From positions 6,541 to 70,540 of the forward strand of contig CABUHS010000010.1 of assembly GCA_902491535.1 (NCBI GenBank): DNA of 64,000 nucleotides, written 5' to 3'. The notes under the pieces were generated by a model, which worked only from the letters and a program-made list of their open reading frames with translations, did not search any database and was not told the origin of the DNA. A program made the translations under genes and the position numbers. The DNA is from an uncultured Eubacteriales bacterium (GTDB lineage: Bacteria > Bacillota > Clostridia > Oscillospirales > CAG-272). Shown piece by piece: positions 2,960-64,000 of the stretch (within the stretch, counting starts at the first letter, position 1; every line of letters starts with the position of its first letter).

Positions 2960-5605
2960 ATGAAAAAAGAGTTGGCAAAAACTTATGCCCCGTCTGAATT
3001 TGAGGATAAGTGGTATAAGTTTTGGGAGGAAAACGGTTATTTCAAACCGGATGACGACCGGAGCAAAGAGCCGTTTAATATAGTTATTCCGCCTCCGAAT
3101 GTTACCGGACAGCTTCACATGGGACATGCTCTCAACAATACACTTCAGGATATTCTTATCCGCACAAAGCGCATGCAGGGATACAATACCATGTGGATTC
3201 CCGGAACCGATCACGCGGGTATTGCAACGCAGATCAAGGTTGAGCAGATGCTCCGCGAAGAAAAAGGACTTTCCCGTCATGATATCGGACGCGAGGAATT
3301 TCTGAAGCTTGTATGGCAGTGGAAGGAAAAGTACGGTGACCGTATTATAAATCAGCTCAAGAAGATCGGATCGTCATGTGACTGGAGCCGCGAGTGCTTC
3401 ACTATGGACGATAATCTTTCTGCCGCTGTAAGAAAGACCTTTGTAAATCTTTATAACAAAGGACTTATATACCGCGGTTTCCGTATTATAAACTGGTGTC
3501 CGAGCTGTGCTACCGCGATCAGTGATGCGGAAGTAGAGCATAAGGAGCTTGAGGGAGCATTTTGGCATATCCGTTATAAACTGTCCGACTGCGACGAGTA
3601 TCTTACAGTTGCTACGACACGTCCGGAGACGATGCTCGGAGATACTGCTGTTGCAGTAAACCCCGAGGACGAGAGATATAAGAAATATATCGGAAAAATG
3701 CTTGTTCTGCCGCTTACAGGCAGACAGATTCCTGTCGTTGCCGACGAGCATGCGAAACCCGAATTCGGAACGGGATGCGTTAAGATCACTCCGTGTCATG
3801 ATCCGAACGACTTTGAAGTCGCACAGCGTCATGGCCTTCCGATGATACAGGTGCTTACGCCTGACGCAAAGATGAACGACGAATGCGGTGTTTACGCAGG
3901 ACTTGACCGCTACGAGGCGCGCAAACGCATAGTTGCGGATCTTGAAGCTTGCGGAGCGCTTGTTAAAATTGAAAAATGCACGCATGAGGTCGGTCATTGC
4001 TACCGCTGCGGAACGGTTCTTGAGCCGACTGCATCGCGCCAGTGGTTTGTTCGCATGAAGCCGCTTGCCGATCCGGCTATCAAGGTCGTTCGCGACGGTA
4101 CGGTAGACTATATTCCCGAAAGATTCTCCAAGCTTTACCTTAACTGGATGGAGAATATTCACGACTGGTGTATTTCGCGTCAGCTTTGGTGGGGACACCG
4201 TATCCCTGCTTATTACTGCGATGACTGTGGCGAAATGATCGTTTCAGAAGAAAATGTTGCAGTCTGCCCGAAGTGCGGTTCCGCACATGTTCATCAGGAC
4301 GAAGATGTTCTTGATACATGGTTTTCATCTGCGCTTTGGCCGTTCTCCACGCTCGGATGGCCGAACAATACAAAAGATCTCGAATATTTCTATCCTACTT
4401 CGGTTCTTGTTACCGCTTACGATATCATAACCTTCTGGGTATCTAAGATGATATTTATGGGACTTGAAAATATGAGCAGCGTATTTCCGGATGATGTGAA
4501 AAAACAGATTCCGTTCCCGCATGTCTTTATTCACGGACTTGTCCGTGACGCGCAGGGAAGAAAGATGTCAAAATCGCTCGGAAACGGTATCGATCCGCTC
4601 GAAGTTGTTGAAAAATACGGCGCTGACGCGCTTCGCTTTGCGCTTACGACAGGAAATTCTCCCGGAAATGACATGCGTTTTTCGGATGAGAAGATCGAGG
4701 CGGCGCGTAACTTTGCAAATAAGCTTTGGAATGCAGCTCGCTTTGTTCTTATGAATCTTACAACTGACGAGACAGGACTTCCATGTTCTGATGAACTTGC
4801 GCTCGAGGACAGATGGATACTGACGCGTTTTGAGCGTCTTACAGCTGAAGTTACAGAAAATATCGACCGCTATGAGCTTGGAGTTGCTCTCTCGAAGCTT
4901 TATGATTTCGTATGGGATGTATTCTGCGATTGGTATATCGAGCTTGTAAAGCCGAGACTTTCGTCAGGAGATACCAACGCTCAGCGCGTGATCGTGTTTG
5001 TTCTTTCGGAGACACTGAAACTTCTGCATCCGTTTATGCCTTTCATTACAGAGGAGATATGGCAGAGTCTGCCGCATGACGGCGAGAGCATTATGATCTC
5101 GGCATATCCGAAATATAATGAAGAGCTTGTATTCGGATCTGATGAGCAGAAGATGGGCCGCATTATTGCCTGTATACGTGCAATAAGAAATCGCCGTGCA
5201 GAGATGAACGTTCCTCCGTCAAAGAAGGCTGCGCTTTACATTGTTACCGCCGACAGGGAGACGTTTGAAGCGGGAAGCGGCTTTTTCGGAAAGCTTGCTT
5301 CGGCTTCTGAGGTGCATGTGGTTGACGGCTATCATGCCGACGATGCCGTTCAGATCGTTTCCGACGCAGCTACGATATATATTCCGCTTGCGGAGATGAT
5401 CGACTTTGAAAAAGAGCTTGCGAGACTTTCCGCCGACAGGGAAAAGACTCTCAGTGAGATCGCGCGTATTGAAAAGAAGCTTGCTAATGAAGGCTTCGTG
5501 TCAAAAGCTCCGGCGGCTGTCGTTGAAGGTGAACGCAAGAAGCTCGACGGATATCGCGATACGCTTGACAATATAGAAAAGGCTATCGCAAAGATCGCAA
5601 AATAA
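2960..5605 (+). CDS. valS: Valine--tRNA ligase
   Basis: 881-aa ORF with a class I HIGH-type motif ([12 protein letters not shown]), KMSKS ([10 protein letters not shown]) and the C-terminal coiled-coil typical of ValRS. Confidence 0.97.
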
Positions 5606-27439: not shown

Positions 27440-27819
27440 ACGGATTGCATCTCCATATAGAGTCTTTCCAAGCGATTATTACGGACCACTCATTCAGAGT
27501 TGAGGCCATACGGACAGCCGGGTCCACTGCCGATTGGCGGTATCTGCCGCCTTATTGATTGAGTTAAAAGCTCAAATTTTATAAGTTGGTTACTTTATAA
27601 CCGAAATGCGTATTTACGCAGACTTGTGAAACGGTCAATAAAGAGTAGTAAAAGTTTTATTGCTATATAGACTCTATAAACCCGCATATCCGTTATGGCA
27701 TTATACCTTATTATAGGTCAATTATGTCACTGTTTTGAATTTTGTAATAATTACAGTCAAAATCAATGTTATAGGATATTAACGCAAGCTGTGTAAAAGC
27801 AGCCTGCGTTTTTATTTTT
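27440..27819 (+). promoter_or_regulatory. Long structured 5' leader / candidate cis-regulatory RNA ending in an intrinsic terminator
   Basis: A long-range helix pairs 27440-27465 with 27669-27693 (acggat/atccgt, tgc/gca, tatagagtct/agactctata). Internal hairpins lie at 27483-27525, 27536-27551, 27559-27575, 27588-27602 and 27607-27620. The terminator at 27781-27819 has an 11-bp stem and tttttattttt. Confidence 0.5.
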
Positions 27820-53212: not shown

Positions 53213-54280
53213 GTGATGCCAATGAGAGAAATCTCAAAAAAGATGGACATTGTAACCGACATTTTGGACACCGCCTTCGACAAGCCGTGGGAAAAGTATT
53301 CTGCTGAAGAATACAAAATCCAGCTTGAAGAAACAAAGTCCAAAGTCCGGGAACTAACGCCCGAACAAGAGCTGAAATTGATGAATAAGCGTATGAATCT
53401 GCGAATACAGGTGACCGCCATTTACAAAAAGGACAGACATGGCAGCCAAGCAACCCGCAAGCGATACTATCAAGCCGCCTGCTATGCCTGTGATTATATT
53501 GCCGGCACCTGTAATTTACAGAAATTCGCAAACTTTCATCCAAAGCATTTCCGTGAAGTTGCAGAGTATTGGAAAACAACAAAAGAACTAAATACGGTTT
53601 ATACCGAGCTTACAGGTTTGCGCAAATATTGTGAGTATGCAGGGTGTAAATACAAGATGCCTGAAAACAAGGAACTGAATCTGCCGAAGCGCGAACCGAC
53701 AAAATATAACCGCGCATGGCTACCTCACGAAATTCAGAAAGCAAAAGAACTTGCTGAAACAATGGGTAGATTCGATGTCCGGGATGCTATTGAACTCGGA
53801 GAAAAATTGGGTCTTCGGATTATCGAAGCCTGTCAGTTCAAGGTCGGAGATGTGAAATCCGCACTCGGTTGGGGCGGTTTGGAAATCAAGAGTAAGGGCG
53901 GTCAGATACGGTTTGTCCCGATTGAAACTGAAGAACAGAAGGAGCTTCTGCAACGCCTGTATCGTGAAGCAAAAGAAAAAGGGTTAATGGACGACGATTT
54001 TATTCTGAGCAAGACAATCAAATACGGTCCGCGTATGGAAAAGAAGTCTATCGAAAACTGGATATACAATCATCGCAAAAAGTTTACAGACCCAAATCGA
54101 GAGCAAACGATAAAGCGCGGTAAAAAGCCGCGGGTTAAAAACATTGTCTTCCACGGGCTTCGCCACAGCTACACACAGGAACGGGGCAAACATTTGCAAG
54201 GCGATCCTAGAAGACAGCAGAAGCTCAGCGAGGGCTTGGGTCATCATCGGTTGTCGGTGACGAATATTTACAAAGAATAA
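53213..54280 (+). CDS. Tyrosine recombinase / phage-integrase family protein
   Basis: About 352-355 aa. It has C-terminal catalytic motifs HGLRHSY and LGHHRLSVTNIY (the Tyr nucleophile sits near the end). The likely start is ATG 53222, 8 nt after AAGGAG. Confidence 0.8.
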   Translation: MMPMREISKKMDIVTDILDTAFDKPWEKYSAEEYKIQLEETKSKVRELTPEQELKLMNKRMNLRIQVTAIYKKDRHGSQATRKRYYQAACYACDYIAGTCNLQKFANFHPKHFREVAEYWKTTKELNTVYTELTGLRKYCEYAGCKYKMPENKELNLPKREPTKYNRAWLPHEIQKAKELAETMGRFDVRDAIELGEKLGLRIIEACQFKVGDVKSALGWGGLEIKSKGGQIRFVPIETEEQKELLQRLYREAKEKGLMDDDFILSKTIKYGPRMEKKSIENWIYNHRKKFTDPNREQTIKRGKKPRVKNIVFHGLRHSYTQERGKHLQGDPRRQQKLSEGLGHHRLSVTNIYKE

Positions 54281-54291
54281 GGAGGAGATAA

Positions 54292-54459
54292 GTGGGCAAA
54301 GAGGTTAAAATCGTTCTCAAATCCCATATACCTGAAGATGAAATCGAAGCATTAGCGAAATGCTTCCTGCCGGACATATTAGACTTTTTTGAATCCGAAG
54401 AAGGCAGACAAGAATTTGAACAGTGGAAAAAGAAACAATCTGAAAAAAGCAATAAATAG
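54292..54459 (+). CDS. Small hypothetical protein (55 aa) coupled to the recombinase gene
   Basis: An AAGGAGGA RBS overlaps the recombinase stop and the start is GTG. The translation is VGKEVKIVLKSHIPEDEIEALAKCFLPDILDFFESEEGRQEFEQWKKKQSEKSNK, followed by a terminator. It is not in the ORF track because it is under 60 aa. Confidence 0.55.
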   Translation: MGKEVKIVLKSHIPEDEIEALAKCFLPDILDFFESEEGRQEFEQWKKKQSEKSNK

Positions 54460-54462
54460 ATA

Positions 54463-54505
54463 ACGACGGTACGAAGACTAATCCTCGTACCGTCGTCATT
54501 TTCTT
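54463..54505 (+). terminator. Intrinsic terminator
   Basis: 12-bp stem acgacggtacga / tcgtaccgtcgt followed by cattttcttt. Confidence 0.8.
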
Positions 54506-54524
54506 TAACTACGCAGTTTCATTG

Positions 54525-54575
54525 AAAAAAACAACAAACCCGAACGTTTCACCGATTGGTAAAAGGTTCGGGTTT
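54525..54575 (-). terminator. Terminator downstream (minus strand) of the tRNA-Leu 3' fragment
   Basis: 9-bp stem aacccgaac / gttcgggtt; on the minus strand it is followed by gttgttttttt. Confidence 0.65.
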
Positions 54576-54583
54576 GAATGCTT

Positions 54584-54642
54584 TGGTGCGGGTAAAAGGA
54601 CTTGAACCTTCACGAAGTTGCCCCCACTAGAACCTGAATCTA
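54584..54642 (-). other. 3' fragment (about 59 nt) of a tRNA-Leu(CAG)-like gene; probable att-site remnant, not a functional tRNA
   Basis: The minus strand reads TAGATTCAGGTTCTAGTGGGGGCAACTTCGTGAAGGTTCAAGTCCTTTTACCCGCACCA. This gives an anticodon loop, a long variable arm, a T-arm GGTTCAAGTCC, the acceptor 3' strand and an encoded CCA. No matching 5' acceptor strand or D-arm follows. Confidence 0.7.
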
Positions 54643-55107
54643 AATTGTATATTATTAAAAGGGAAGGAAAGCTCTGAATTATCGCAAATTAATGCAAAAT
54701 ACCCTATAAATTGCTTAATTATATAATAATAAGGACGTTTCGATTTTATTGTGTGTTAGAATTTCCTGTGATTTCGTTAGAAAAATCGTTAGACAGACAA
54801 TCACCGTTTTAGCCCCGTTTTTACTACGCTTAATTTTATCATTGACGTAACAGAAGATCAACTTATTTATACTGTTTTTATAAAAAAGAAATACCAAGTA
54901 TAATAGCTTTGCCAGATATTTTTGGTGTAACAAAACAATTAGCGTATATTTATTCGTTCCTGAAATCTTGCAAGACAGCGATACTACATACATGTCAGAG
55001 ATATTCATGCGGAGACATATATACTCCCTAAATGCAGAAAAAATAAAAACAGTACTGTTTATGTGAATTGTTGAATAAAAAATAATAAATATTTTTTTGT
55101 AAATATA

Positions 55108-55136
55108 TTGACATAGTTTGGCTAATATGTTAAAAT
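55108..55136 (+). promoter_or_regulatory. Strong sigma-A promoter with an extended -10 at the head of the island
   Basis: TTGACA (55108-55113), a 17-nt spacer ending in TGT, then TAAAAT (55131-55136). Confidence 0.55.
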
Positions 55137-55716
55137 ACAAACAAGATAAAGTCAGATTAATAAATCTAACGATATCTTATATATAATACCCAGTTTAATA
55201 TTTCTCAGGAATTACCTTTTAATAAGAACAGGACATCCCCCTAACGTATCACTTGATTTTTTCAGTATAAGGTATGAGGCTTGTTATGAAAAACTGTTTT
55301 TCCAAGGCGTGTATATCCCTTAATGAAATAACGGTATCAGACTGCAAAAATGATGCAATAAATGCTATTGCTATGTCCAAATTTAATATGTGCGTAAACA
55401 GCGCATTGCTTGCTTGATAGAGGCTTGCTTTGCGCTGTTTTGTCATATAATACTCTATCATGTGCTTGATTATATTTTTATAACAAAACATTAATTATAC
55501 TAGAAATAATTGGAGTGTTTTATGATATTGTTGATTATTATGAAGAAAAGGATTAATATGTGGGGTTAGAAATTCAAAAAAATCAATACTGAATATTCAA
55601 TATTCTAATCCAATTTAATATACAATTTTTTTAGTACGATGTCATAGGTATTGAATAGCATAAGCGTATTAAACAGAAACATTAAGAAGTATAAAACTTG
55701 CGGAGGAAATAAAAAA

Positions 55717-57117
55717 ATGTCAAGGAACTTAAAAATGTCTAAGTATAACTTTATCTGTTTAGATAAAGAAGGAGATTTAATTTTATATAATTTTCTAAAT
55801 GGAATATCAAGTTTAACTAAGATAAAAAAATCTGATATTGATAGTTTCACTAATGGATTTTTGACGAATTCTGAGAAACTTTATGCGGCTTGTAATGAAT
55901 ACAAAGAAATGGCTAATACATTGCTTAAGTTAGGTATATTAGTAGATGATGACACAGACGAAAGTGTTTTATATGATGCAAAACAGTATAGCGAAATTTA
56001 TGATACAAAGCTATACCTTACTATTTTCCCAACAGGAAAGTGTAATTTTAGATGCCCATACTGTTTCGAAACCTCACAAGATTTTAGTCGAGATACAATG
56101 ACGAGTGATTCGCAGGATGCAATACTTAAATTTGTTCAAAAGACAATATCTAATCATAGAATGCTTCATGTATCTTGGTTCGGTGGTGAACCGTTAGTAG
56201 CATCCGAAGTAGTTGAAAATTTATCCGATAAATTTATCCAAATTTGCAATGTAAGACATATACCCTATTCTGCTGATATGGTAACAAACGGCTTTTTACT
56301 TGATTCTAATATGTTTGATACACTTTATAAATTACAGGTATATGATTATATGATTACTATTGATGGATTTAAAAAACAGCATGATAAAAGGAGATTTACA
56401 TATGATGGTAAGGGTTCATATGATACAATTATGGATAACTTGTTAAAGATACGAAATAATAAGCAGTATAAATTTGCTAATATAATGATTCGTGTCAACA
56501 TGTCAACTGGATTTTTGGAAATGCTTGACGAATTTGTGAATTTTCTTGGTTCATCATTTGCCGATGATCCGCGATTCAAATTCATGTTTGTGCCTGTAGT
56601 CAAGTTTTCTAGTTCTCATTTTTCAAATGAAATTATCTATTCTAATCATAAAGAATTGTACATGCGTCTTTCTAAAAATGATGTTTATACGAATAAACTA
56701 TATCCTAATATGCTAAAATTAACTTCAATACTTCCGCAGCAAAAGTGCCCGGCATGCTTAAAAAATTCATATGTTATTACTTCCGATTTGAGTGTGTATA
56801 AATGTAATGCTCACTATGATTTTGATATCAATAAAATCGGGCGAGTAAATTTAAATGGTGATCTATTAATTGATGAAACTCTTCATAGAAGGTGGTACTT
56901 AATGAAAAAGTCTATTCAGAGAATACCCGAATCTTGTAATGACTGTTTCTACTCTCCTTGTTGTCTAAATATCGATTCTGGTTGTCCAGTCAGCTATCTT
57001 AAAACGAATCCAGATGTAACATTATGTCCGTTGAAAGATGAAAATAAAAAAAATAATATTGTTGAAACAATTTTATACGCTGCTGATATATATCCCTGTA
57101 CGACACTTGCATTATAA
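55717..57117 (+). CDS. Radical SAM / SPASM-domain peptide maturase
   Basis: The start at 55717 follows a GGAGGA RBS. It has a CxxxCxxC cluster (GKCNFRCPYCFE) and a roughly 100-aa N-terminal extension (possible RiPP recognition element). The C-terminal Cys-rich SPASM region is CPACLKN...YKCNAH...CNDCFYSPCCLNIDSGCP. Confidence 0.88.
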   Translation: MSRNLKMSKYNFICLDKEGDLILYNFLNGISSLTKIKKSDIDSFTNGFLTNSEKLYAACNEYKEMANTLLKLGILVDDDTDESVLYDAKQYSEIYDTKLYLTIFPTGKCNFRCPYCFETSQDFSRDTMTSDSQDAILKFVQKTISNHRMLHVSWFGGEPLVASEVVENLSDKFIQICNVRHIPYSADMVTNGFLLDSNMFDTLYKLQVYDYMITIDGFKKQHDKRRFTYDGKGSYDTIMDNLLKIRNNKQYKFANIMIRVNMSTGFLEMLDEFVNFLGSSFADDPRFKFMFVPVVKFSSSHFSNEIIYSNHKELYMRLSKNDVYTNKLYPNMLKLTSILPQQKCPACLKNSYVITSDLSVYKCNAHYDFDINKIGRVNLNGDLLIDETLHRRWYLMKKSIQRIPESCNDCFYSPCCLNIDSGCPVSYLKTNPDVTLCPLKDENKKNNIVETILYAADIYPCTTLAL

Positions 57118-57284
57118 TTTTATGTATATATAATTATAATCATAAAATCAAACTACTTTTCAATTTAAATATTGTAACTTTAAAATGGTATTATATCGTA
57201 AATTTCAAAATTTTGTTACAAAAGATTTATATAAATATTAGTATAATTGTTTTTAAAATTTGATTTAGAGGAGGTAAATAGTAT

Positions 57285-57542
57285 ATGATATTTACATATC
57301 AAATGCTTGTCAAAATATTAGTTGATAAATTAGGCTTTGTTCTTCTTGATGGTAGACAAGATGATTTTGCTATTAATGAATACGTTACTGATTCTGTAAC
57401 GTTTATCAAATTAATTATTGCTATAGAAGAGACTATTGGAAAAGAATTAACAGATGACTTTCTTGATTACGAAATGTTGAGTTCCGCAAAAGGCTTTGCG
57501 GCAAAAATAGATTGTTTCATTGATTCTTCTAAGGATCAATAA
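57285..57542 (+). CDS. Acyl carrier protein-related small protein
   Basis: 85 aa. TDSVTFIKLIIAIEETIGKELTDDFL matches the ACP helix II region with a DS(L/V) phosphopantetheine-site-like serine. A good RBS (GAGGAGG) precedes it. Confidence 0.7.
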   Translation: MIFTYQMLVKILVDKLGFVLLDGRQDDFAINEYVTDSVTFIKLIIAIEETIGKELTDDFLDYEMLSSAKGFAAKIDCFIDSSKDQ

Positions 57543-57605
57543 ATACTATTAAATACTGGGATTAATTAATTTTGAGCGTTACTATAGTTTTTATAAAAGA
57601 ACTAA

Positions 57606-57620
57606 AAACGCGACGCGTTT
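57606..57620. promoter_or_regulatory. Perfect 15-bp palindrome AAACGCG-A-CGCGTTT just upstream of the precursor RBS (operator candidate)
   Basis: It is a GC-rich dyad in an otherwise AT-rich stretch, and it ends 4 nt before AAGGAGG. Confidence 0.4.
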
Positions 57621-57640
57621 AAGAGAAGGAGGTGAATACT

Positions 57641-57775
57641 TTGAAAAAGATCTTAAAAAAGAAGATAAAATTTTCATCGAATGCTATTCGTTATTTTTCC
57701 GGTGAACTTGTTCAATATTGGAAACCAGAGAATTTTCCAGATGGTACTTCTGGTACTTGTCATTATACGTGTTAA
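57641..57775 (+). CDS. Candidate RiPP precursor peptide (44 aa), not in the ORF track
   Basis: An AAGGAGGTG RBS lies 7 nt before a TTG start. The translation is MKKILKKKIKFSSNAIRYFSGELVQYWKPENFPDGTSGTCHYTC, with a basic leader-like N-terminus and a Gly/Ser/Thr/Cys C-terminus. It lies between the ACP-like and protease genes. Confidence 0.6.
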   Translation: MKKILKKKIKFSSNAIRYFSGELVQYWKPENFPDGTSGTCHYTC

Positions 57776-58111
57776 CTATAATAATACCGTTATAAATTAT
57801 AGTAATATTGATAGTTATTCACTATGTTAAACGAAGTAATGAATGATTAGAAATGTTATAGCAGTTTTTAATCATCGCGTTATTCTCCTAATTTTAGAAG
57901 ATTGATTTTTTTGCTATGTGTATGTAGAAACTATGGTAACGCTAAGTTTTTACATATTTTGATTATTTCTTCACTGAAATAAAATTTATATATAGTATGC
58001 AGCAATAGTATATTGTTTCGTATGGGTTTGTTTTTGATAAGCGTTATTCACCCAAAAGAATAATATAATCTGCATTAACAAGTACTTTGAGAAATGAGGT
58101 GAAATAACATT

Positions 58112-59902
58112 ATGTATTATGATGTAGTAATTATTGATAGTGGAATTAATGTGAGCAATGATTTTAACATGAATGGAATTTGTATAGAAAAAAATAGTGA
58201 AGGTTTTTTGATTGATAATAATTTGAAGGATGAATTCGGACATGGAACTATTATTTACTCTATAATAAGTAAATGTATAGATCCAAGCAAAATTTACATT
58301 ATTAAACTACCTGCCAATCGCGTAGAGCTTGACGATTCTTGTTTAATTGCTGCATTGGAATATATAAAAAAGAATATTAAATGTAAAATTATTAACATTA
58401 GTTTAGGTGTAAAAAGTGGTGAAAATATAGATAAATTATATAATATATGTGCCGAAATATCAGCAATGGGGATCGTAATAGTTTCTGCTTTTGATAATGA
58501 AGGGTGTCATTCATATCCAGCTGCGTTTGATTGTGTAATTGGAGTTGATAATAAATATGATTTTAAAATTTCTACAGAATTTGATTTTGTAGAAAATAGT
58601 CCCGTAAATATCTTAGCAAAAGGAGATATACAACGTCTAACCGTTCAAGATGGCAAAATACTATTAGTCGGCGGAGCGAGTATATCGTGCGCACATATAA
58701 CTTCTATTTTAACTAAAAAAATAATTGGTAATTTAAATCTTCAAGGCGCGTTGTCATATTTAAAGTCAAAATCTAGGCATATTTATTCTTCTCATAAATT
58801 AGAGGGCGTTATAGAAACACCTCTTTTTAAGATTACAAATGCAGCGGTCTTTCCGTTTACAAAAGAGGCGCATGCATTTGTTAGATTTGCTGATATGTTG
58901 AAATTTAATATACAGTGCTATTATGATATTAAGCGTTCTGGAAAAGTAGGAAGAAAGATATCTAGTTATTATGAAGGTGTAAAGACTGAAGAATGTATTA
59001 AAGATATTAATAAAATTGATTTTTCGAATATAGACACTATTATACTTGGACACTTGGATGAATTAAATGCAGTTTCTAAACGAGATTACAAGATGGAATT
59101 AATAAGAAATGCTATTGTGAATGGTGTTAACGTTTATTCATTTGATCCTCTGGATTCGTATAGTGAGATACTAAACAATTCAGGAATAAAATATTATTAT
59201 CCAAGTGTAACAAATAACAATATACCGAAAAATACATTTGGAAAGTTATATAAAATTTCCAAACCAGTTGTTGGTATTTTTGGGACATCGTCACGACAGG
59301 GAAAATTTTCTCTGCAATTAACATTAAAGAGAGAATTGGAATCACATGGTTACGATGTAGGAACAGTTGGCACAGAGCCGCATTCGCCATTGTTCGATTT
59401 TGATGTTGTTTTTCCAATGGGATATAATTCTACTGTACGCTTGTATAATAACGAAATTGTATTATATTTGAATAATGAAATTAACAAATTATGTTTGAAT
59501 GGTAAGGAAATTATATTAGCTTCTACACAAGCACAAATTATACCTTATTATTGTAATAATTTGCTTGAATATCCGTCAATGCAATACCATTTTGCATTAG
59601 GAATAAATCCGGATGCAATAGTAATGTGCATTAACTATCATGATGAAATACAATATATTAAAAACTCTATATATGCGCTGATGGGATTAACGGATGCGAA
59701 TGTAATTGCATTTGTAATATATCCGATAACATACTCTAGTGATTGGAATGGAATATATGGTAACACAAAACATAAAATAACATATGAAGAATACAAACAG
59801 AAAGCAGACTCTTTGCTAAAAGAATTTCAAATTCCGGTTTATATGTTAGGTGATAAAGAACACATAAATGAATTGTATCAAACAATAATTAATTTCTTTT
59901 AA
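58112..59902 (+). CDS. Fusion protein: N-terminal subtilisin-like (S8) serine peptidase domain plus a roughly 370-aa C-terminal domain of unknown function (DUF1611-like by motif)
   Basis: The Asp-His-Ser triad order is VVIIDSGIN, GHGTIIYS, GGASISCAHITS. The C-terminal GIFGTSSRQGKFSLQLTLKRELESHGYDVGTVGTEPHS resembles the Gly-rich GTD..GK..T loop of DUF1611-type proteins (from memory). Confidence 0.7.
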   Translation: MYYDVVIIDSGINVSNDFNMNGICIEKNSEGFLIDNNLKDEFGHGTIIYSIISKCIDPSKIYIIKLPANRVELDDSCLIAALEYIKKNIKCKIINISLGVKSGENIDKLYNICAEISAMGIVIVSAFDNEGCHSYPAAFDCVIGVDNKYDFKISTEFDFVENSPVNILAKGDIQRLTVQDGKILLVGGASISCAHITSILTKKIIGNLNLQGALSYLKSKSRHIYSSHKLEGVIETPLFKITNAAVFPFTKEAHAFVRFADMLKFNIQCYYDIKRSGKVGRKISSYYEGVKTEECIKDINKIDFSNIDTIILGHLDELNAVSKRDYKMELIRNAIVNGVNVYSFDPLDSYSEILNNSGIKYYYPSVTNNNIPKNTFGKLYKISKPVVGIFGTSSRQGKFSLQLTLKRELESHGYDVGTVGTEPHSPLFDFDVVFPMGYNSTVRLYNNEIVLYLNNEINKLCLNGKEIILASTQAQIIPYYCNNLLEYPSMQYHFALGINPDAIVMCINYHDEIQYIKNSIYALMGLTDANVIAFVIYPITYSSDWNGIYGNTKHKITYEEYKQKADSLLKEFQIPVYMLGDKEHINELYQTIINFF

Positions 59903-59947
59903 ATATTTGCTGATAATAAGGAATGGTAAAAAGGAGATTATATTAAT

Positions 59948-60352
59948 ATGGAAGAAAAAATTAAACTTTTGTCAATAGGAAAAAAAAGGGCAAAAAAGAC
60001 GAATTTAGAGGGATGGGCGAAAATTGTAGAAAGATACGCTCCGGATATGTATGATTTGTTGTATGGAGCTGGGGAGAAGGATGCATTAAAAAAAGTTCGC
60101 GAACTCAGACCTGAGATAATATTGATATTGCCAAGTATATTGCAAAATGACTTAAAAGATGGTTTGAGTTTATTAAAAAAAATAAAGGAACTGCATCCTG
60201 AAGCAGCTGTATTTGTATGTATGGGTATGGTGGATGATGAGCAGGATGCGTTTGACGAATATAAAGCTTGTGGTGCATATAAATGCTATTCAGCACCTGT
60301 AAGTATGGATGCATTATTTCATGATATGTATGTAGCATTAAATTTGGAATGA
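59948..60352 (+). CDS. Stand-alone receiver-like (CheY-fold) protein with a degenerate phospho-acceptor site
   Basis: 134 aa. A REC-like pattern (KVRELRPEIILILPS...GLSLLKKIKELHPEAAVFVCMG...GAYKCYSAPVSMDAL) is present. However, the acidic pocket, the acceptor Asp and the conserved Lys appear replaced. Confidence 0.5.
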   Translation: MEEKIKLLSIGKKRAKKTNLEGWAKIVERYAPDMYDLLYGAGEKDALKKVRELRPEIILILPSILQNDLKDGLSLLKKIKELHPEAAVFVCMGMVDDEQDAFDEYKACGAYKCYSAPVSMDALFHDMYVALNLE

Positions 60353-60378
60353 TTAAACATGGGAGGACAATAGAAACC

Positions 60379-62164
60379 ATGAAAAGAGTAAAAAACATAC
60401 AGTTAGACAATTTGTTACTTTCCTTTAAAGAAATATGGAATTATGATAAGAGACTTATATTTCTTTTACTTGCTGATGTTTTTATAAGTGCGATACGACC
60501 GTTTCCCAACATTATTCTTTCTGGACGTATTGTTGATAGTATCGCTTATGGAAAGAATTTTTTGTCGGTTATCTTTTATATGGTTTTGATGTTTGGTATA
60601 AATTACTTTATAACAGCCATAGGTACTTTTTTGTCAAGATATAGAGAATATTTATTTATTAAGTTAAGTAACAAATTGGATAATGATGTAAATGAAAAAT
60701 GTTGATTTTGAACAGTTTAACGATTCTTCCGTTCAAGATCGTATCATGATGGTTAACCAAGCAATACGTGGAAATAATTTTTTTACTAGCCTTACTATCG
60801 TTTTTTCTACAATTTCTCAATTTGTAACCCTTATTGGAATAGTATATGTAATGACAATTTTAAATATATGGTTGTTAGCTATTGCGTTGATAGTTATTGT
60901 TTTACAGACAATATTGCATTATATGAACCTTAGGTATGATAGAAAGTATATGGAAGATTCTGTGAGCGAACGCAGGAAAATTGCTTATGTATCACAATTA
61001 ATTAAGGATATACAAAGTAAAAAAGATATTGTAATGTTTGGGATGGGTGATTACATATTAAAAAAAATCAAATCTTTTCAACAGACAATGCTAATATTCG
61101 ATAAGCGCCGAATACGGTGGGGTGGATTTATTGAGATGACTACTTATTCTTTAAACGTAGCCTTTCAAATTTTTGCTTATATATTGATTGGAATTAACGC
61201 TTTTAATAAAGATATTTCTATTGGTGATTTTACAATTGGTATTGCTTCTTTGATGAATTTTATGTCTGCATCTTCCTTTGTAACTAATAACATACTTACC
61301 TTTAACGATAATTTTTTTTATATTAGGCAGTATAAATCCTTTAATAAGCTCAGAAGCAAGTTTGATAAATCATCTTCTAATATTACGTTAAACAGCATAG
61401 ATAAAAACAAAATTGAAATAGAGTTTCGCAATGTTTCTTTTCGATATCCTAATAGTACTGCATTCGTATTAAAAAATATAAATTTGACAATAAAGAATAA
61501 TGAACGTCTTGGGATTGTGGGATATAATGGCGCAGGCAAGACAACATTCACTCTTTTGTTAACTCGTATGTACGATCCTACAGAAGGATCGATATATTTG
61601 AATGGCATAGATATTAGAAATATTGATTATAAAGAATACCAAAAGATTATTTCATCGGTTAATCAGGACTTTTCTCTTTTGGCTTTTTCTTTGTTGGAAA
61701 ATATCGCTATTACAGATATAGCATCTCAAGATGAAAGAAAAAAAGTATTGGGACTTTTAAATGATAATGGTTTACAAGAAAGAATGAGGAAGCTTTATAG
61801 AGGACTTGATACGCCGATTACAAAGACGTTGTCTGCATCAGGTGTTGATTTATCAGGGGGAGAACGTCAAAAAATCGCGGTAGTACGCGCACTTTATAAG
61901 GATTCTCCAATTCTGATACTAGATGAGCCTACATCGGCACTTGATCCAGTTGCTGAACACGAAATATTTCAGAAATTTTCAGAAATGTCCGAAGGAAAAA
62001 CAACTCTTCTTATCTCTCATAGAATATATAGCACTCGTTTTTGTGATAAAATTGCAGTTTTTGATAAGGGTGAGATAAAAGAATATGGAACGTTCGAAGA
62101 GCTAATGGGATTGAAAGGCTTATATTATGAGTTCTTTCAACAACAAGCGGAATACTTTAAATAA
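60379..62164 (+). CDS. ABC exporter, fused permease/ATPase; reading frame broken by a 1-nt shift in an A5 run (60695-60699)
   Basis: ORF 60349-60705 carries TM helices 1-2. ORF 60692-62164 carries the rest of the TMD and the NBD, with Walker A GYNGAGKTT, signature LSGGERQ and Walker B ILILDEPTS. The two ORFs are contiguous parts of one exporter. An RBS (GGGAGGA) precedes ATG 60379. Confidence 0.8.
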
Positions 62165-62375
62165 TAATAATTAGAATTTAATTTGTTAATGCAATACTGC
62201 AATATATAAACATATGACCGTCATTGCAAGAAATGAATAGTAAAGAGTAAATATTATTATCAGAATTAAGTTTATAATATTATATTTCAATGAATGGTTT
62301 AAATATTGTGTTGGTTGGTAAATACATTATAAAAATTAATTGCTTTTAAGCGGGCGGAAAGGTGTTATAATACTT

Positions 62376-63401
62376 ATGAATAAGATACTTCCTATTGAAA
62401 TATCTCCAATTATCAAAGCATATGTTAATCACGCATATCCGTTTGGAATTATAGAAGCAAATTTCAGTGAGCAGATTTTATTACGCTTGTTATGTGATAA
62501 ATATGTAAATTGTATATATAGCAAAAATGATAGAAATAAATTTTATATATATGAAGCCGATAGTTGGTTTGAACAATCGGGTGCAATAACGCATCAAAAC
62601 CTTATGTGTAAAGAAAAAGATATAGTATGTGTACGTGAAGCTATTGAGGAAGCACGTCGAAGAATTGTTAAAGGAGAATATGTTTATTCTTCTCCTAATG
62701 AAGGAAAAATATCCGCAATTAGTCAGGGACGAATATATGATTTTGATCACGAATGTTTGATATATGGATTTAATGATGATGAAAGATTTTATCAATCTAT
62801 TGGATATATAAGACCACCAGAATATGTAAATTATTATACCCCATATAAAATTACATATGATGAATATGAAGAAGCCTTGTTAAATGTTCAAATCGGTGTA
62901 GTAGAGTTGTTATTTTACAAAGTAAATAAAGATTTTGTATTACCGAGCATTGATTTGGAAAATGTTTTAATGTTGTTTAGACAATACCTTGACTCTGATA
63001 TTCCAAAGTTTTCAACCAACTATGACTTGCGTGGAATTATTGATGCCGGAGAATTGAAATTTGGTATATCTGCATGGAACGAACTCGCTATGTATATTGA
63101 ATACATTGATGTTGATAAAAAAATTGATATGCGGTATGTCAGAAGTTATATGGAACATAAATATTTAATGAAGAAGCGAATTTTATATATTTTAGAGTAT
63201 TTGAGTATTTTCAATTCATCTATAATCGAAAAGGTTTCTAAAATTTATCGTGAATCGCAAGATATAATGTTGCTTTCGTTAAAATATAATTTTACAGGAA
63301 GTAATATATTATTGAAACGTATTTCCGATAAAATCAAAATAAATAATATGAATGAAGTTGAATACTTATCGAAAGTAATCGATTATATAATCGCTTTTTA
63401 A
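62376..63401 (+). CDS. Hypothetical protein (341 aa), last gene of the cluster
   Basis: It is an AT-rich ORF with no recognisable motif, no TM segment and no signal peptide. The start was chosen at MNKILPIE; the longest ORF starts at 62340 (TTG). Confidence 0.5.
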   Translation: MNKILPIEISPIIKAYVNHAYPFGIIEANFSEQILLRLLCDKYVNCIYSKNDRNKFYIYEADSWFEQSGAITHQNLMCKEKDIVCVREAIEEARRRIVKGEYVYSSPNEGKISAISQGRIYDFDHECLIYGFNDDERFYQSIGYIRPPEYVNYYTPYKITYDEYEEALLNVQIGVVELLFYKVNKDFVLPSIDLENVLMLFRQYLDSDIPKFSTNYDLRGIIDAGELKFGISAWNELAMYIEYIDVDKKIDMRYVRSYMEHKYLMKKRILYILEYLSIFNSSIIEKVSKIYRESQDIMLLSLKYNFTGSNILLKRISDKIKINNMNEVEYLSKVIDYIIAF

Positions 63402-63415
63402 ATGTTTGAATATTT

Positions 63416-63844
63416 TTATAACCCTGTGCAGAGAAAATCCTCGATAATATCGTACATATGAATTGTGTTGATATTAAGGAGGTTACACAGAGCGGTAAGA
63501 TTTTGAACTGCTGTAAAGTTTACGCTTATATCTTCAAAAAATATTCCGTCTCCCTTAATGCCATAGCCGATATACTTGATTCCGTCAAGTGTGTAAGTTT
63601 CGTTATGCACCGAATAAATTTCAGGATTAAGCATATATTCAATCTCAGACAAAGTTGTTCCGTATTTTTCCCACAAAATCATAGCAGTACTCAGTTTGAT
63701 ATCGGATTTTCCGGACTCGATATTTCGTATTTGACGATCGCTGTATTCTATTGATTCAGCAACTTCCTCCTGCGTCAGTCGGTTCAGTGTTCTTAATTTC
63801 TGCATAAGTTTTCCGTAGTCAGCTGACTTTTCATGTTTTTTCAT
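63416..63844 (-). CDS. XRE-family HTH transcriptional regulator
   Basis: 142 aa with HTH LTQEEVAESIEYSDRQIRNIESG and a C-terminal domain of unknown function. It converges on the cluster end. Confidence 0.8.
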   Translation of the reverse strand: MKKHEKSADYGKLMQKLRTLNRLTQEEVAESIEYSDRQIRNIESGKSDIKLSTAMILWEKYGTTLSEIEYMLNPEIYSVHNETYTLDGIKYIGYGIKGDGIFFEDISVNFTAVQNLTALCNLLNINTIHMYDIIEDFLCTGL

Positions 63845-64000
63845 ATTCTTGATAGAGTATCTTGTTGGTGTTGTGCCAACAAAAACCTGAAGGAATTAAA
63901 AAATATCTATTTGTACTTGCCTGCTTACTGGGAAAAATTAAAGGAACTTCAATCTAAAACAGACAGACCTATGAAACAGAGCGGGTCTGTTTTTGATTTA

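Follow-up and report, generated by a model that had tools for sequence, protein, structure and literature searches.

An unannotated 44-codon gene in a radical SAM/SPASM gene cluster from Clostridia probably encodes the precursor of a modified two-cysteine peptide

The window analysed here, a 64,000-nt stretch of DNA from an uncultured Eubacteriales bacterium (contig CABUHS010000010.1), carries an unannotated open reading frame (ORF) of 44 codons that lies among genes for a radical S-adenosylmethionine (rSAM) enzyme, a subtilisin-like S8 protease and an ATP-binding cassette (ABC) exporter. Sequence comparisons make it probable that this ORF encodes the precursor of a ribosomally synthesized peptide with post-translational modifications (RiPP), which would be matured by these three neighbors. 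The parts of this reading differ in strength: the ORF is almost certainly a real gene; the peptide is, as we infer with good confidence, the substrate of the rSAM enzyme of the cluster; and, judging from the relatives of this enzyme only, we lean towards a thioether as the modification. The gene and its parts are as follows.

57641–57775, plus strand: precursor peptide gene, 44 codons plus stop, TTG start, from direct translation.
57626–57634, plus strand: Shine-Dalgarno sequence AAGGAGGTG, read from the sequence, 6 nt before the start codon.
57641–57706, plus strand: putative leader region, residues 1–22, MKKILKKKIKFSSNAIRYFSGE, boundary placed by conservation.
57707–57772, plus strand: putative core region, residues 23–44, LVQYWKPENFPDGTSGTCHYTC, with C40 and C44 as CxxxC; fits the subfamily consensus.

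The product reads L(M)KKILKKKIKFSSNAIRYFSGELVQYWKPENFPDGTSGTCHYTC up to the stop, the initial L being read as the start M. The initial annotation of this DNA had recognized the ribosome-binding site (RBS) AAGGAGGTG upstream of the TTG, the CxxxC at the extreme C-terminus and the position of the ORF between a carrier-like and a protease gene (57285–57542 and 58112–59902, respectively), all of which we find again; only its spacing of 7 nt is off, by one at most, since six bases (aatact) separate AAGGAGGTG from the TTG at 57641. A GTG also lies in frame at 57632 and would extend the product to 47 aa; it overlaps the RBS and is not a likely start. The ORF was also said to be unannotated. Exact look-up of the 44-aa and 47-aa products indeed returned no entry from a gene-position index or from about 15 billion predicted proteins, and two near-identical public contigs (99.4% and ~100% identity) hold the same peptide ORF with no gene called there; the empty look-up therefore reflects a lack of annotation rather than a lack of the sequence.

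Short ORFs are common in DNA of 29% GC, gene callers passed over this one on the public contigs that hold the same peptide, and its product figures in no protein database, all of which would fit an open frame that arose by chance in AT-rich intergenic DNA, some other small ORF being the true precursor. Comparative sequence data refute this possibility, to which we give next to no credit, in four respects: (i) Among 5.8 billion protein clusters, a search retrieved a single relative, the 45-aa P0001 (84% identical), which comes from a 746-nt metagenome contig (locus L001). When the DNA of the window is aligned with that of L001, the ORF, the RBS and the start position (ATG in the homologue) match, and the flanking sequences, ahead of the RBS and past the stop, are barely alignable until the protease gene begins. 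Within the ORF, 19 of the 28 differences fall at third codon positions, with a proportion of synonymous differences (pS) of 0.69, a proportion of nonsynonymous ones (pN) of 0.09 and a ratio of the corresponding rates (dN/dS) of 0.05; between loci L084 and L086 the figures are 18 of 21 and a dN/dS of 0.03. The ORF is thus protein-coding, and purifying selection on it is strong. (ii) The start position is constant in 25 related loci (ATG in 19, GTG in four, TTG in two), and a GGAGG-type RBS precedes the start by 5–9 nt in the same 25 loci, which indicates that the ORF and its RBS exceed chance. (iii) A profile search of a clustered protein database gave 38 clusters, and an exhaustive HMMER search of 1.84 billion representatives gave 49 clusters (50% identity) at E ≤ 1e-3; 47 of these 49 are small proteins of 38–76 aa, and in nearly all of the 47 the match spans the whole profile or most of it. 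(iv) As a control, all 99 small ORFs of the region 54281–63500 were run by tblastn against the other loci. Only two proved to be both intergenic and conserved, namely a gene resembling those of acyl carrier proteins (ACPs), with matches in 38 loci, and ORF 57641–57775, with matches in 26. The remaining matches correspond to shadow frames in large genes, apart from an ORF pair at 55249–55491 that matches locus L007 only. The conserved partner is thus not a different small ORF, an outcome that the initial annotation had named as fatal to its proposal, and no other candidate precursor was retained.

The initial annotation had further proposed to look beside related rSAM genes for translated homologues whose leader is conserved and whose C-terminal core contains Cys, and such homologues do exist. 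About 90 relatives are at least 38% identical to the rSAM enzyme of the window; most of them come from metagenome-assembled genomes of Lachnospiraceae and Clostridia and from metagenomes. In the seven loci L084, L086, L088, L090, L002, L092 and L006, where the rSAM enzyme is 62, 60, 52, 48, 45, 39 and 37% identical to that of the window, respectively, the genes follow one another in the same order (rSAM, ACP-like gene, small ORF, fusion of an S8 protease with a TIGR04066 domain) and every small ORF begins with MKKxLKK. Across related clusters, identity to the window ranges from 37 to 67% for the rSAM enzyme and from 33 to 74% for the protease, and the slot of the small ORF is filled in L001, L002, L006, L084–L093 and most of L094–L151. 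A metagenome scan seeded with the protease fusion brought in 63 further loci. Among the loci with at least 50% protease identity and the slot in view, nearly all contain, just upstream of the protease gene, a small ORF that joins an MKK-type leader to a core containing Cys; of the two exceptions, L095 has the ORF at another place in the locus and L097 yielded none. The small ORF is also present in many loci with 33–43% protease identity. Two loci, L136 (80–196 and 301–441) and L151 (720–896 and 938–1123), each have two precursor genes in tandem, which share the leader and differ in their Cys-repeat cores (e.g. GTNC or TCTNSG repeats). The scan of genome contigs with the rSAM alignment relied on generic rSAM motifs, and it is because of this choice that only L002 and L006 came out of it as close relatives; its 78 other loci carry distant SPASM enzymes, with related clusters in a few of them (L007, L013 and L043). 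When the 22-residue leader was run as a profile on 41,070 six-frame fragments from all loci, homologous small ORFs matched with E-values from 1e-13 to 2e-7, Cys-rich relatives from more distant clusters formed a weaker tier (E 0.008–0.02) and clearly unrelated fragments began at about E 0.05–0.4. As befits a RiPP precursor gene, the ORF is thus a small, conserved gene that is co-oriented with those of a maturase, a protease and an exporter.

The anatomy of the family, for which counts were taken over 87 unique peptides, is also that of RiPP precursors. The leader comprises 17–25 residues, with a basic N-terminus and an [LY][YF]xxE ending, and its consensus is MKKxLKKKxKxSxNA[VI]RYFSxE. In two alignments, there is no variation at M1, K2, K3, L5 and K7 and almost none at E22; Cys occurs in the leader of only five of the 87 peptides. 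By contrast, the core, 12–41 residues long, falls into at least eight unrelated sequence types, whose sole family-wide feature is a Cys close to the C-terminus, the rest being hypervariable: the last Cys lies 0–6 residues from the end in 86 of the 87 peptides, and equally 86 have at least two Cys in the core (C40 and C44 in the window peptide), the exception to the latter being a frameshifted variant. CxxxC is found in 50 cores. Exactly two Cys are present in 53, in keeping with the earlier remark that the two Cys of the window peptide permit only one or two crosslinks. What had been expected to be conserved was the leader together with a GTCHYTC-like core. The leader is; a core of this kind is kept only in the subfamily of the window peptide (about 15 members), with the consensus EL[IV]x[YF]xx[PT]xxFx[DN]GxxGxCx[YW][ST]C. 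Note that window-type cores pair with the rSAM enzymes closest to that of the window and other core types with more distant ones, as enzyme–substrate co-evolution predicts. A conserved leader, a hypervariable core, one conserved reactive residue and purifying selection together make up the classical signature of a RiPP precursor.

The presumed modifying enzyme is encoded upstream of the small ORF.

55717–57117, plus strand: radical SAM/SPASM peptide maturase, 466 aa, identified by family matches and by a fold match to CteB.

The open frame begins with a TTG at 55651, and the ATG at 55717 agrees with the database protein P0002. The CxxxCxxC motif and the Cys of the SPASM domain are invariant across 32 homologues. 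The top NCBIfam matches are TIGR04463, CefB and Clo7bot, followed by FlmE/OhkG, the geopeptide maturase, PapB, CcpM and the SCIFF maturase, all of which are maturases of Cys-rich peptides. The closest PDB sequence is that of CteB (E 2.7e-15). An AlphaFold2 model built on the homologue alignment (pLDDT 91, pTM 0.88) predicts an N-terminal domain of three strands plus helices (β3–helix), of the RiPP recognition element (RRE) type, and its top fold match is again CteB, a SCIFF maturase that forms thioethers and has an RRE (5WGG, E 2.6e-17), over the full length (476 aligned columns), with anSME, TigE, ChlB and SuiB next. According to this model, the enzyme would combine a SPASM domain with a leader-binding RRE, and the peptide offers Cys donors in its core, two features looked for in thioether RiPP systems.

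The other genes of the cluster lie downstream of the rSAM gene.

57285–57542, plus strand: ACP-like gene, 85 aa; PP-binding match at E 1.1e-3, just under the Pfam cut-off.
58112–59902, plus strand: fusion protein, 596 aa; N-terminal S8 subtilisin-like protease and C-terminal TIGR04066/DUF1611 P-loop domain.
59948–60352, plus strand: stand-alone receiver-like protein, 134 aa; weak Response_reg match, E 3e-3.
60349–62164, plus strand: ABC exporter, permease plus ATPase, with NCBIfam and Pfam ABC matches; split into ORFs of 118 and 490 aa.
62340–63401, plus strand: conserved cluster protein, 341–353 aa; possible distant BtrH_N/C39-like papain-fold protein.

The S8 domain makes up the N-terminal third of the fusion protein and has QhpE as its best family match (E 3.7e-25, residues 5–207); D9, H44 and S190, the presumed catalytic triad, are invariant in eight aligned sequences. 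Residues 244–594 match TIGR04066 from 3 to 357 of its 361 profile positions (E 1.7e-24, 86.5 bits for a cut-off of 200), and this C-terminal domain passes the Pfam threshold for DUF1611 (29.2 bits for a cut-off of 25). In the ACP-like protein, S37, the phosphopantetheine-site Ser, is invariant in 10 homologues that are 24–58% identical, which points to a functional carrier protein within a RiPP cluster. A second ACP-like gene (4676–4966) is present in L088, upstream of its rSAM gene. The receiver-like gene has a homologue at the same place in L002, L084, L086, L088 and L092. The exporter gene is split by an 8-bp deletion at about 60704 (AAAATGT^TGATTTTGA in the window versus AAAATGTTTAAATATGGATTTTGA in L082) and is intact (597 aa) on the contig L082, which is 99.4% identical; the indel could be a genuine mutation that inactivates the gene in this strain, or else an error of assembly. 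As for the last protein, the window copy has no Pfam match and a profile search against PDB sequences gave nothing significant (best E 0.077); among its homologues, four of six match BtrH_N weakly (best E 4.7e-4) and one of six matches Peptidase_C39_2, and the family has a conserved Cys…His pair. Homologues are encoded at L084 12222–13235, L086 12174–13178, L088 3593–4582, L007 7634–8758 and L002 8081–9871, the one in L002 being fused to a polysaccharide deacetylase-like domain.

These elements can be assembled into a pathway. The N-terminal ~22 residues of the peptide, MKKILKKKIKFSSNAIRYFSGE, would act as the leader and be bound by the RRE-like N-terminal domain of the adjacent rSAM enzyme, which would modify the 22-residue core at C40 and C44; the likeliest product would carry one or two intramolecular thioethers, of the sactionine or ranthionine type, to upstream residues. 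The S8 domain of the 596-aa protein would then cut off the leader and the ABC transporter would export the product. What the comparisons show are the parts and their conservation; the action of the rSAM enzyme on this peptide, the thioether chemistry, the cleavage site, the order of the steps and a role as bacteriocin or signal are inferred from them.

Several points weigh against this reading. The case is built on sequence comparison and predicted structure. No curated precursor family of Pfam or NCBIfam recognizes the peptide, even with the threshold relaxed to E ≤ 10, and no promoter or terminator signal distinguishes its ORF. The frameshift in the exporter may cripple the pathway here, unless it is an assembly error. 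Above all, the rSAM enzyme scores below every curated NCBIfam cut-off, as do those of the related clusters, so that its chemistry cannot be transferred from an equivalog, and SPASM enzymes of the same fold catalyse other reactions (formylglycine formation by anSME, a C–C crosslink by SuiB, epimerisation by EpeE); for its part, the CxxxC could simply form a disulfide.

The last two points bear on an alternative in which the peptide is the substrate of the rSAM enzyme and the modification is something other than a Cys thioether: a C–C or C–O crosslink, an epimerisation or an oxidation of the Cys, with the CxxxC as a disulfide or as a ligand of the auxiliary cluster, or else an acylation dependent on the carrier protein as the defining modification. 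ChlB, among the structural neighbors, also differs in chemistry, and classical sactipeptide or ranthipeptide pathways make no use of ACP-like, DUF1611 or weakly BtrH_N-like proteins such as those of the cluster. We nevertheless hold this alternative to be rather unlikely: the best match by both sequence and fold, CteB, forms thioethers; TIGR04463, CefB, Clo7bot, PapB, CcpM and the SCIFF maturase all work on Cys-rich peptides; and Cys is the only residue common to all core types.

Alternatively, the product could be a real small protein that is not a substrate of the enzymes of the cluster, such as an unmodified, disulfide-only bacteriocin, an immunity or regulatory peptide, or a signaling pro-peptide processed by the protease only. 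Its basic amphipathic N-terminus could equally be an export or processing signal, the pairing of enzyme and substrate proposed here is drawn from gene content, and Agr-like genes (LytTR regulator, HATPase_c_5 kinase) adjoin homologous clusters. Such a role appears very improbable in view of the strict linkage of the ORF to the rSAM, ACP-like and protease genes across 37–67% rSAM identity, of the conserved leader and hypervariable, Cys-anchored core, which follow the RiPP pattern and are unlike an immunity or regulatory protein, and of the predicted RRE-like domain of the rSAM enzyme, which is of the leader-binding kind.

As to the Agr-like neighbors, a LytTR response regulator and a HATPase_c_5 histidine kinase are encoded directly upstream of the clusters of L092 (1747–3791) and L093 (512–2556). 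In L006 (4440–6967), the ORF translations can be read as a large, putatively kinase-like ORF with multiple membrane passes together with a 188-aa membrane protein that seems to resemble AgrB. These neighbors hint at control of the peptides by quorum sensing, or at a signaling function of the peptides themselves.

Returning to the proposal of an rSAM-modified RiPP, the accessory proteins leave room for a second modification dependent on a carrier protein. BtrH moves an acyl group off a carrier protein, and the candidates for such a second step would be the ACP-like protein, whose Ser is invariant, the DUF1611/TIGR04066 domain fused to the protease and the BtrH_N-like papain-fold protein. In its boldest form, this idea describes a new RiPP subclass, in which a two-Cys core would be crosslinked by the rSAM enzyme and, after leader removal, acylated or aminoacylated from a phosphopantetheinylated carrier; we consider it a long shot.

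Two inverted repeats flank the small gene.

57606–57620, no strand assigned: GC-rich palindrome AAACGCG-A-CGCGTTT, 7-nt arms with 1 nt between them, upstream of the RBS.
57775–57803, no strand assigned: AT-rich 8-bp inverted repeat after the stop, arms ACTATAAT (57775–57782) and ATTATAGT (57796–57803).

Neither hairpin exceeds chance. The palindrome, present ahead of the ORF as originally described, folds at −4.9 kcal/mol (z-score −1.4), is terminator-like on the minus strand only and is not conserved in L001; we do not retain it as a structured element. The AT-rich repeat is likewise real, and its arms are 8 bp long. It had been proposed to act as a partial terminator that sets the precursor:enzyme stoichiometry, and this part of the claim is not supported: the repeat folds at −7.2 kcal/mol with a z-score of −0.75 (48 of 200 shuffled sequences fold as well), is followed by no T tract on the plus strand and is not conserved in L001, and a terminator scan of the plus strand of the region found none. 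Promoter-like matches in the region are at background level (30 versus an expectation of 25.4 ± 5.2 from shuffled sequences), which led us to reject a promoter of its own for the ORF. The best promoter-like site of the region, at 55108–55136 on the plus strand (TTGACA, 17 nt, TAAAAT, with a TG extension and 11 of 12 matches), lies about 580 nt upstream of the rSAM start and is, by its consensus match only, a candidate operon promoter. Elsewhere in the window, and unrelated to the ORF, 27483–27533 on the plus strand matches the small RNA SpF59 (ldcC RNA, RF02440) in Rfam with 65.2 bits for a gathering threshold of 37.2.

The cluster looks like a horizontally acquired island. Its GC content (54001–64000) is 29–32%, versus about 39–51% in the rest of the window (compared over 1–52000), and it begins right after a tyrosine recombinase gene (integrase, 53213–54280), with type I restriction-modification genes upstream; in L002, too, an integrase gene directly precedes the cluster. 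A 255-nt stretch upstream of the rSAM gene (55194–55441), which overlaps the small ORFs 55249–55491 (minus strand) and 55274–55417 (plus strand), is 79% identical at the DNA level to L007 1633–1881. The copy in L007 lies between an ISL3-like transposase gene and the homologous cluster of that locus, whose proteins are only about 30% identical. The stretch is probably the remnant of an insertion sequence end or a shared regulatory element.

An unannotated precursor gene beside an rSAM gene is what a RiPP specialist would expect. The interest lies rather in an uncharacterised family common in gut Clostridia, in its simple two-Cys substrate and in accessory enzymes with no assigned function. The ORF would name the missing substrate of a sizeable group of uncharacterised rSAM clusters in gut and rumen Clostridia and Lachnospiraceae; one family member occurs on 894 contigs and another on 81. 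Such precursors are often skipped by gene callers, and the family has neither a name nor a curated model: databases offer nothing beyond “hypothetical protein [Lachnospiraceae bacterium]”, and a literature search found no paper on it. The leader profile (MKKxLKK…[LY][YF]xxE) could be used to find and annotate more members, and a 22-residue core with two Cys is about the simplest usable substrate for establishing the activity of this rSAM clade. Neither curated family names nor the literature assign, as far as we found, a function to the ACP-related and TIGR04066/DUF1611 proteins; if a second modification does take place, it would assign a function for the first time to the accessory proteins TIGR04066 and TIGR04069 of CcpM-type systems.

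Among known systems, the TIGR04463 family of rSAM/SPASM maturases, defined in silico, provides the best NCBIfam model for the rSAM enzymes of the window and of related clusters. Its cut-off of 525 bits is reached by none of the 12 rSAM enzymes tested from this clade and its neighbors (194.4 bits for the window, 153–233 for related clusters). The SCIFF system CteA–CteB (thermocellin) and PapA–PapB share with the cluster a short precursor with Cys in its C-terminal part and, according to the structural model, a full-length CteB-like rSAM fold with N-terminal RRE-like and SPASM domains. They differ in that the window enzyme is about 16% identical to CteB and scores far below the cut-offs of the SCIFF maturase model (81.6 versus 425 bits) and of the PapB model (104.6 versus 340 bits), and in that the leader is unrelated; moreover, we know of no ACP-like, DUF1611 or S8 partner in these two systems.

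A third parallel is provided by QhpC/QhpD/QhpE of quinohemoprotein amine dehydrogenase, where the subtilisin-like protease QhpE cuts the leader off a polypeptide after the rSAM/SPASM enzyme QhpD has formed its Cys thioethers. The likeness is in the sequence of events, an rSAM enzyme acting on Cys first and an S8 protease removing the leader next. Differences concern the scores (88.6 bits for a cut-off of 165 for the S8 domain on QhpE, 68.7 for a cut-off of 453 for the rSAM enzyme on QhpD) and the setting, since the window cluster has no dehydrogenase context and its product would be a free peptide.

The closest described system is the CcpM/CLI_3235 “Cys-rich peptide” set of NCBIfam families, which comprises a TIGR04065 precursor, the rSAM enzyme CcpM (TIGR04068), a TIGR04066 protein, an ACP-related TIGR04069 protein, an S8 subtilase and an ABC exporter (PMC10731318, PMC4573289). 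Paenibacillus polymyxa #23, with its SacP23 cluster (PMC10731318), and Roseburia intestinalis L1-82 (PMC4573289) provide examples; reports of the set are limited to bioinformatics or to heterologous expression of the unmodified peptide (PMC10731318, PMC4573289). The parts list is shared: an rSAM/SPASM enzyme, ACP-related and TIGR04066-type proteins, a subtilase, an ABC exporter and a small Cys-containing precursor. The differences are as follows: (i) the window rSAM enzyme reaches 86.5 of 500 bits on TIGR04068, over residues 80–283 only, and is nearer to TIGR04463, CefB and Clo7bot; (ii) the TIGR04066 domain reaches 86.5 of 200 bits and is fused to the subtilase in a single 596-aa protein; (iii) the peptide and two relatives have no TIGR04065 match at E ≤ 10, the window precursor being a separate sequence family, and its core has two Cys versus the Cys-rich 42-aa core of SacP23; (iv) TIGR04069 is not matched at E ≤ 10, generic ACP models being matched at E 3e-3 or weaker; and (v) the window cluster adds BtrH_N-like and receiver-like proteins. 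Membership in TIGR04065, TIGR04066, TIGR04068, TIGR04069, TIGR04463, CefB, Clo7bot, PapB or SCIFF is thus not supported. Although it belongs to no curated family, the cluster would, from what its sequences suggest, work like a CcpM-type or ranthipeptide-type system.

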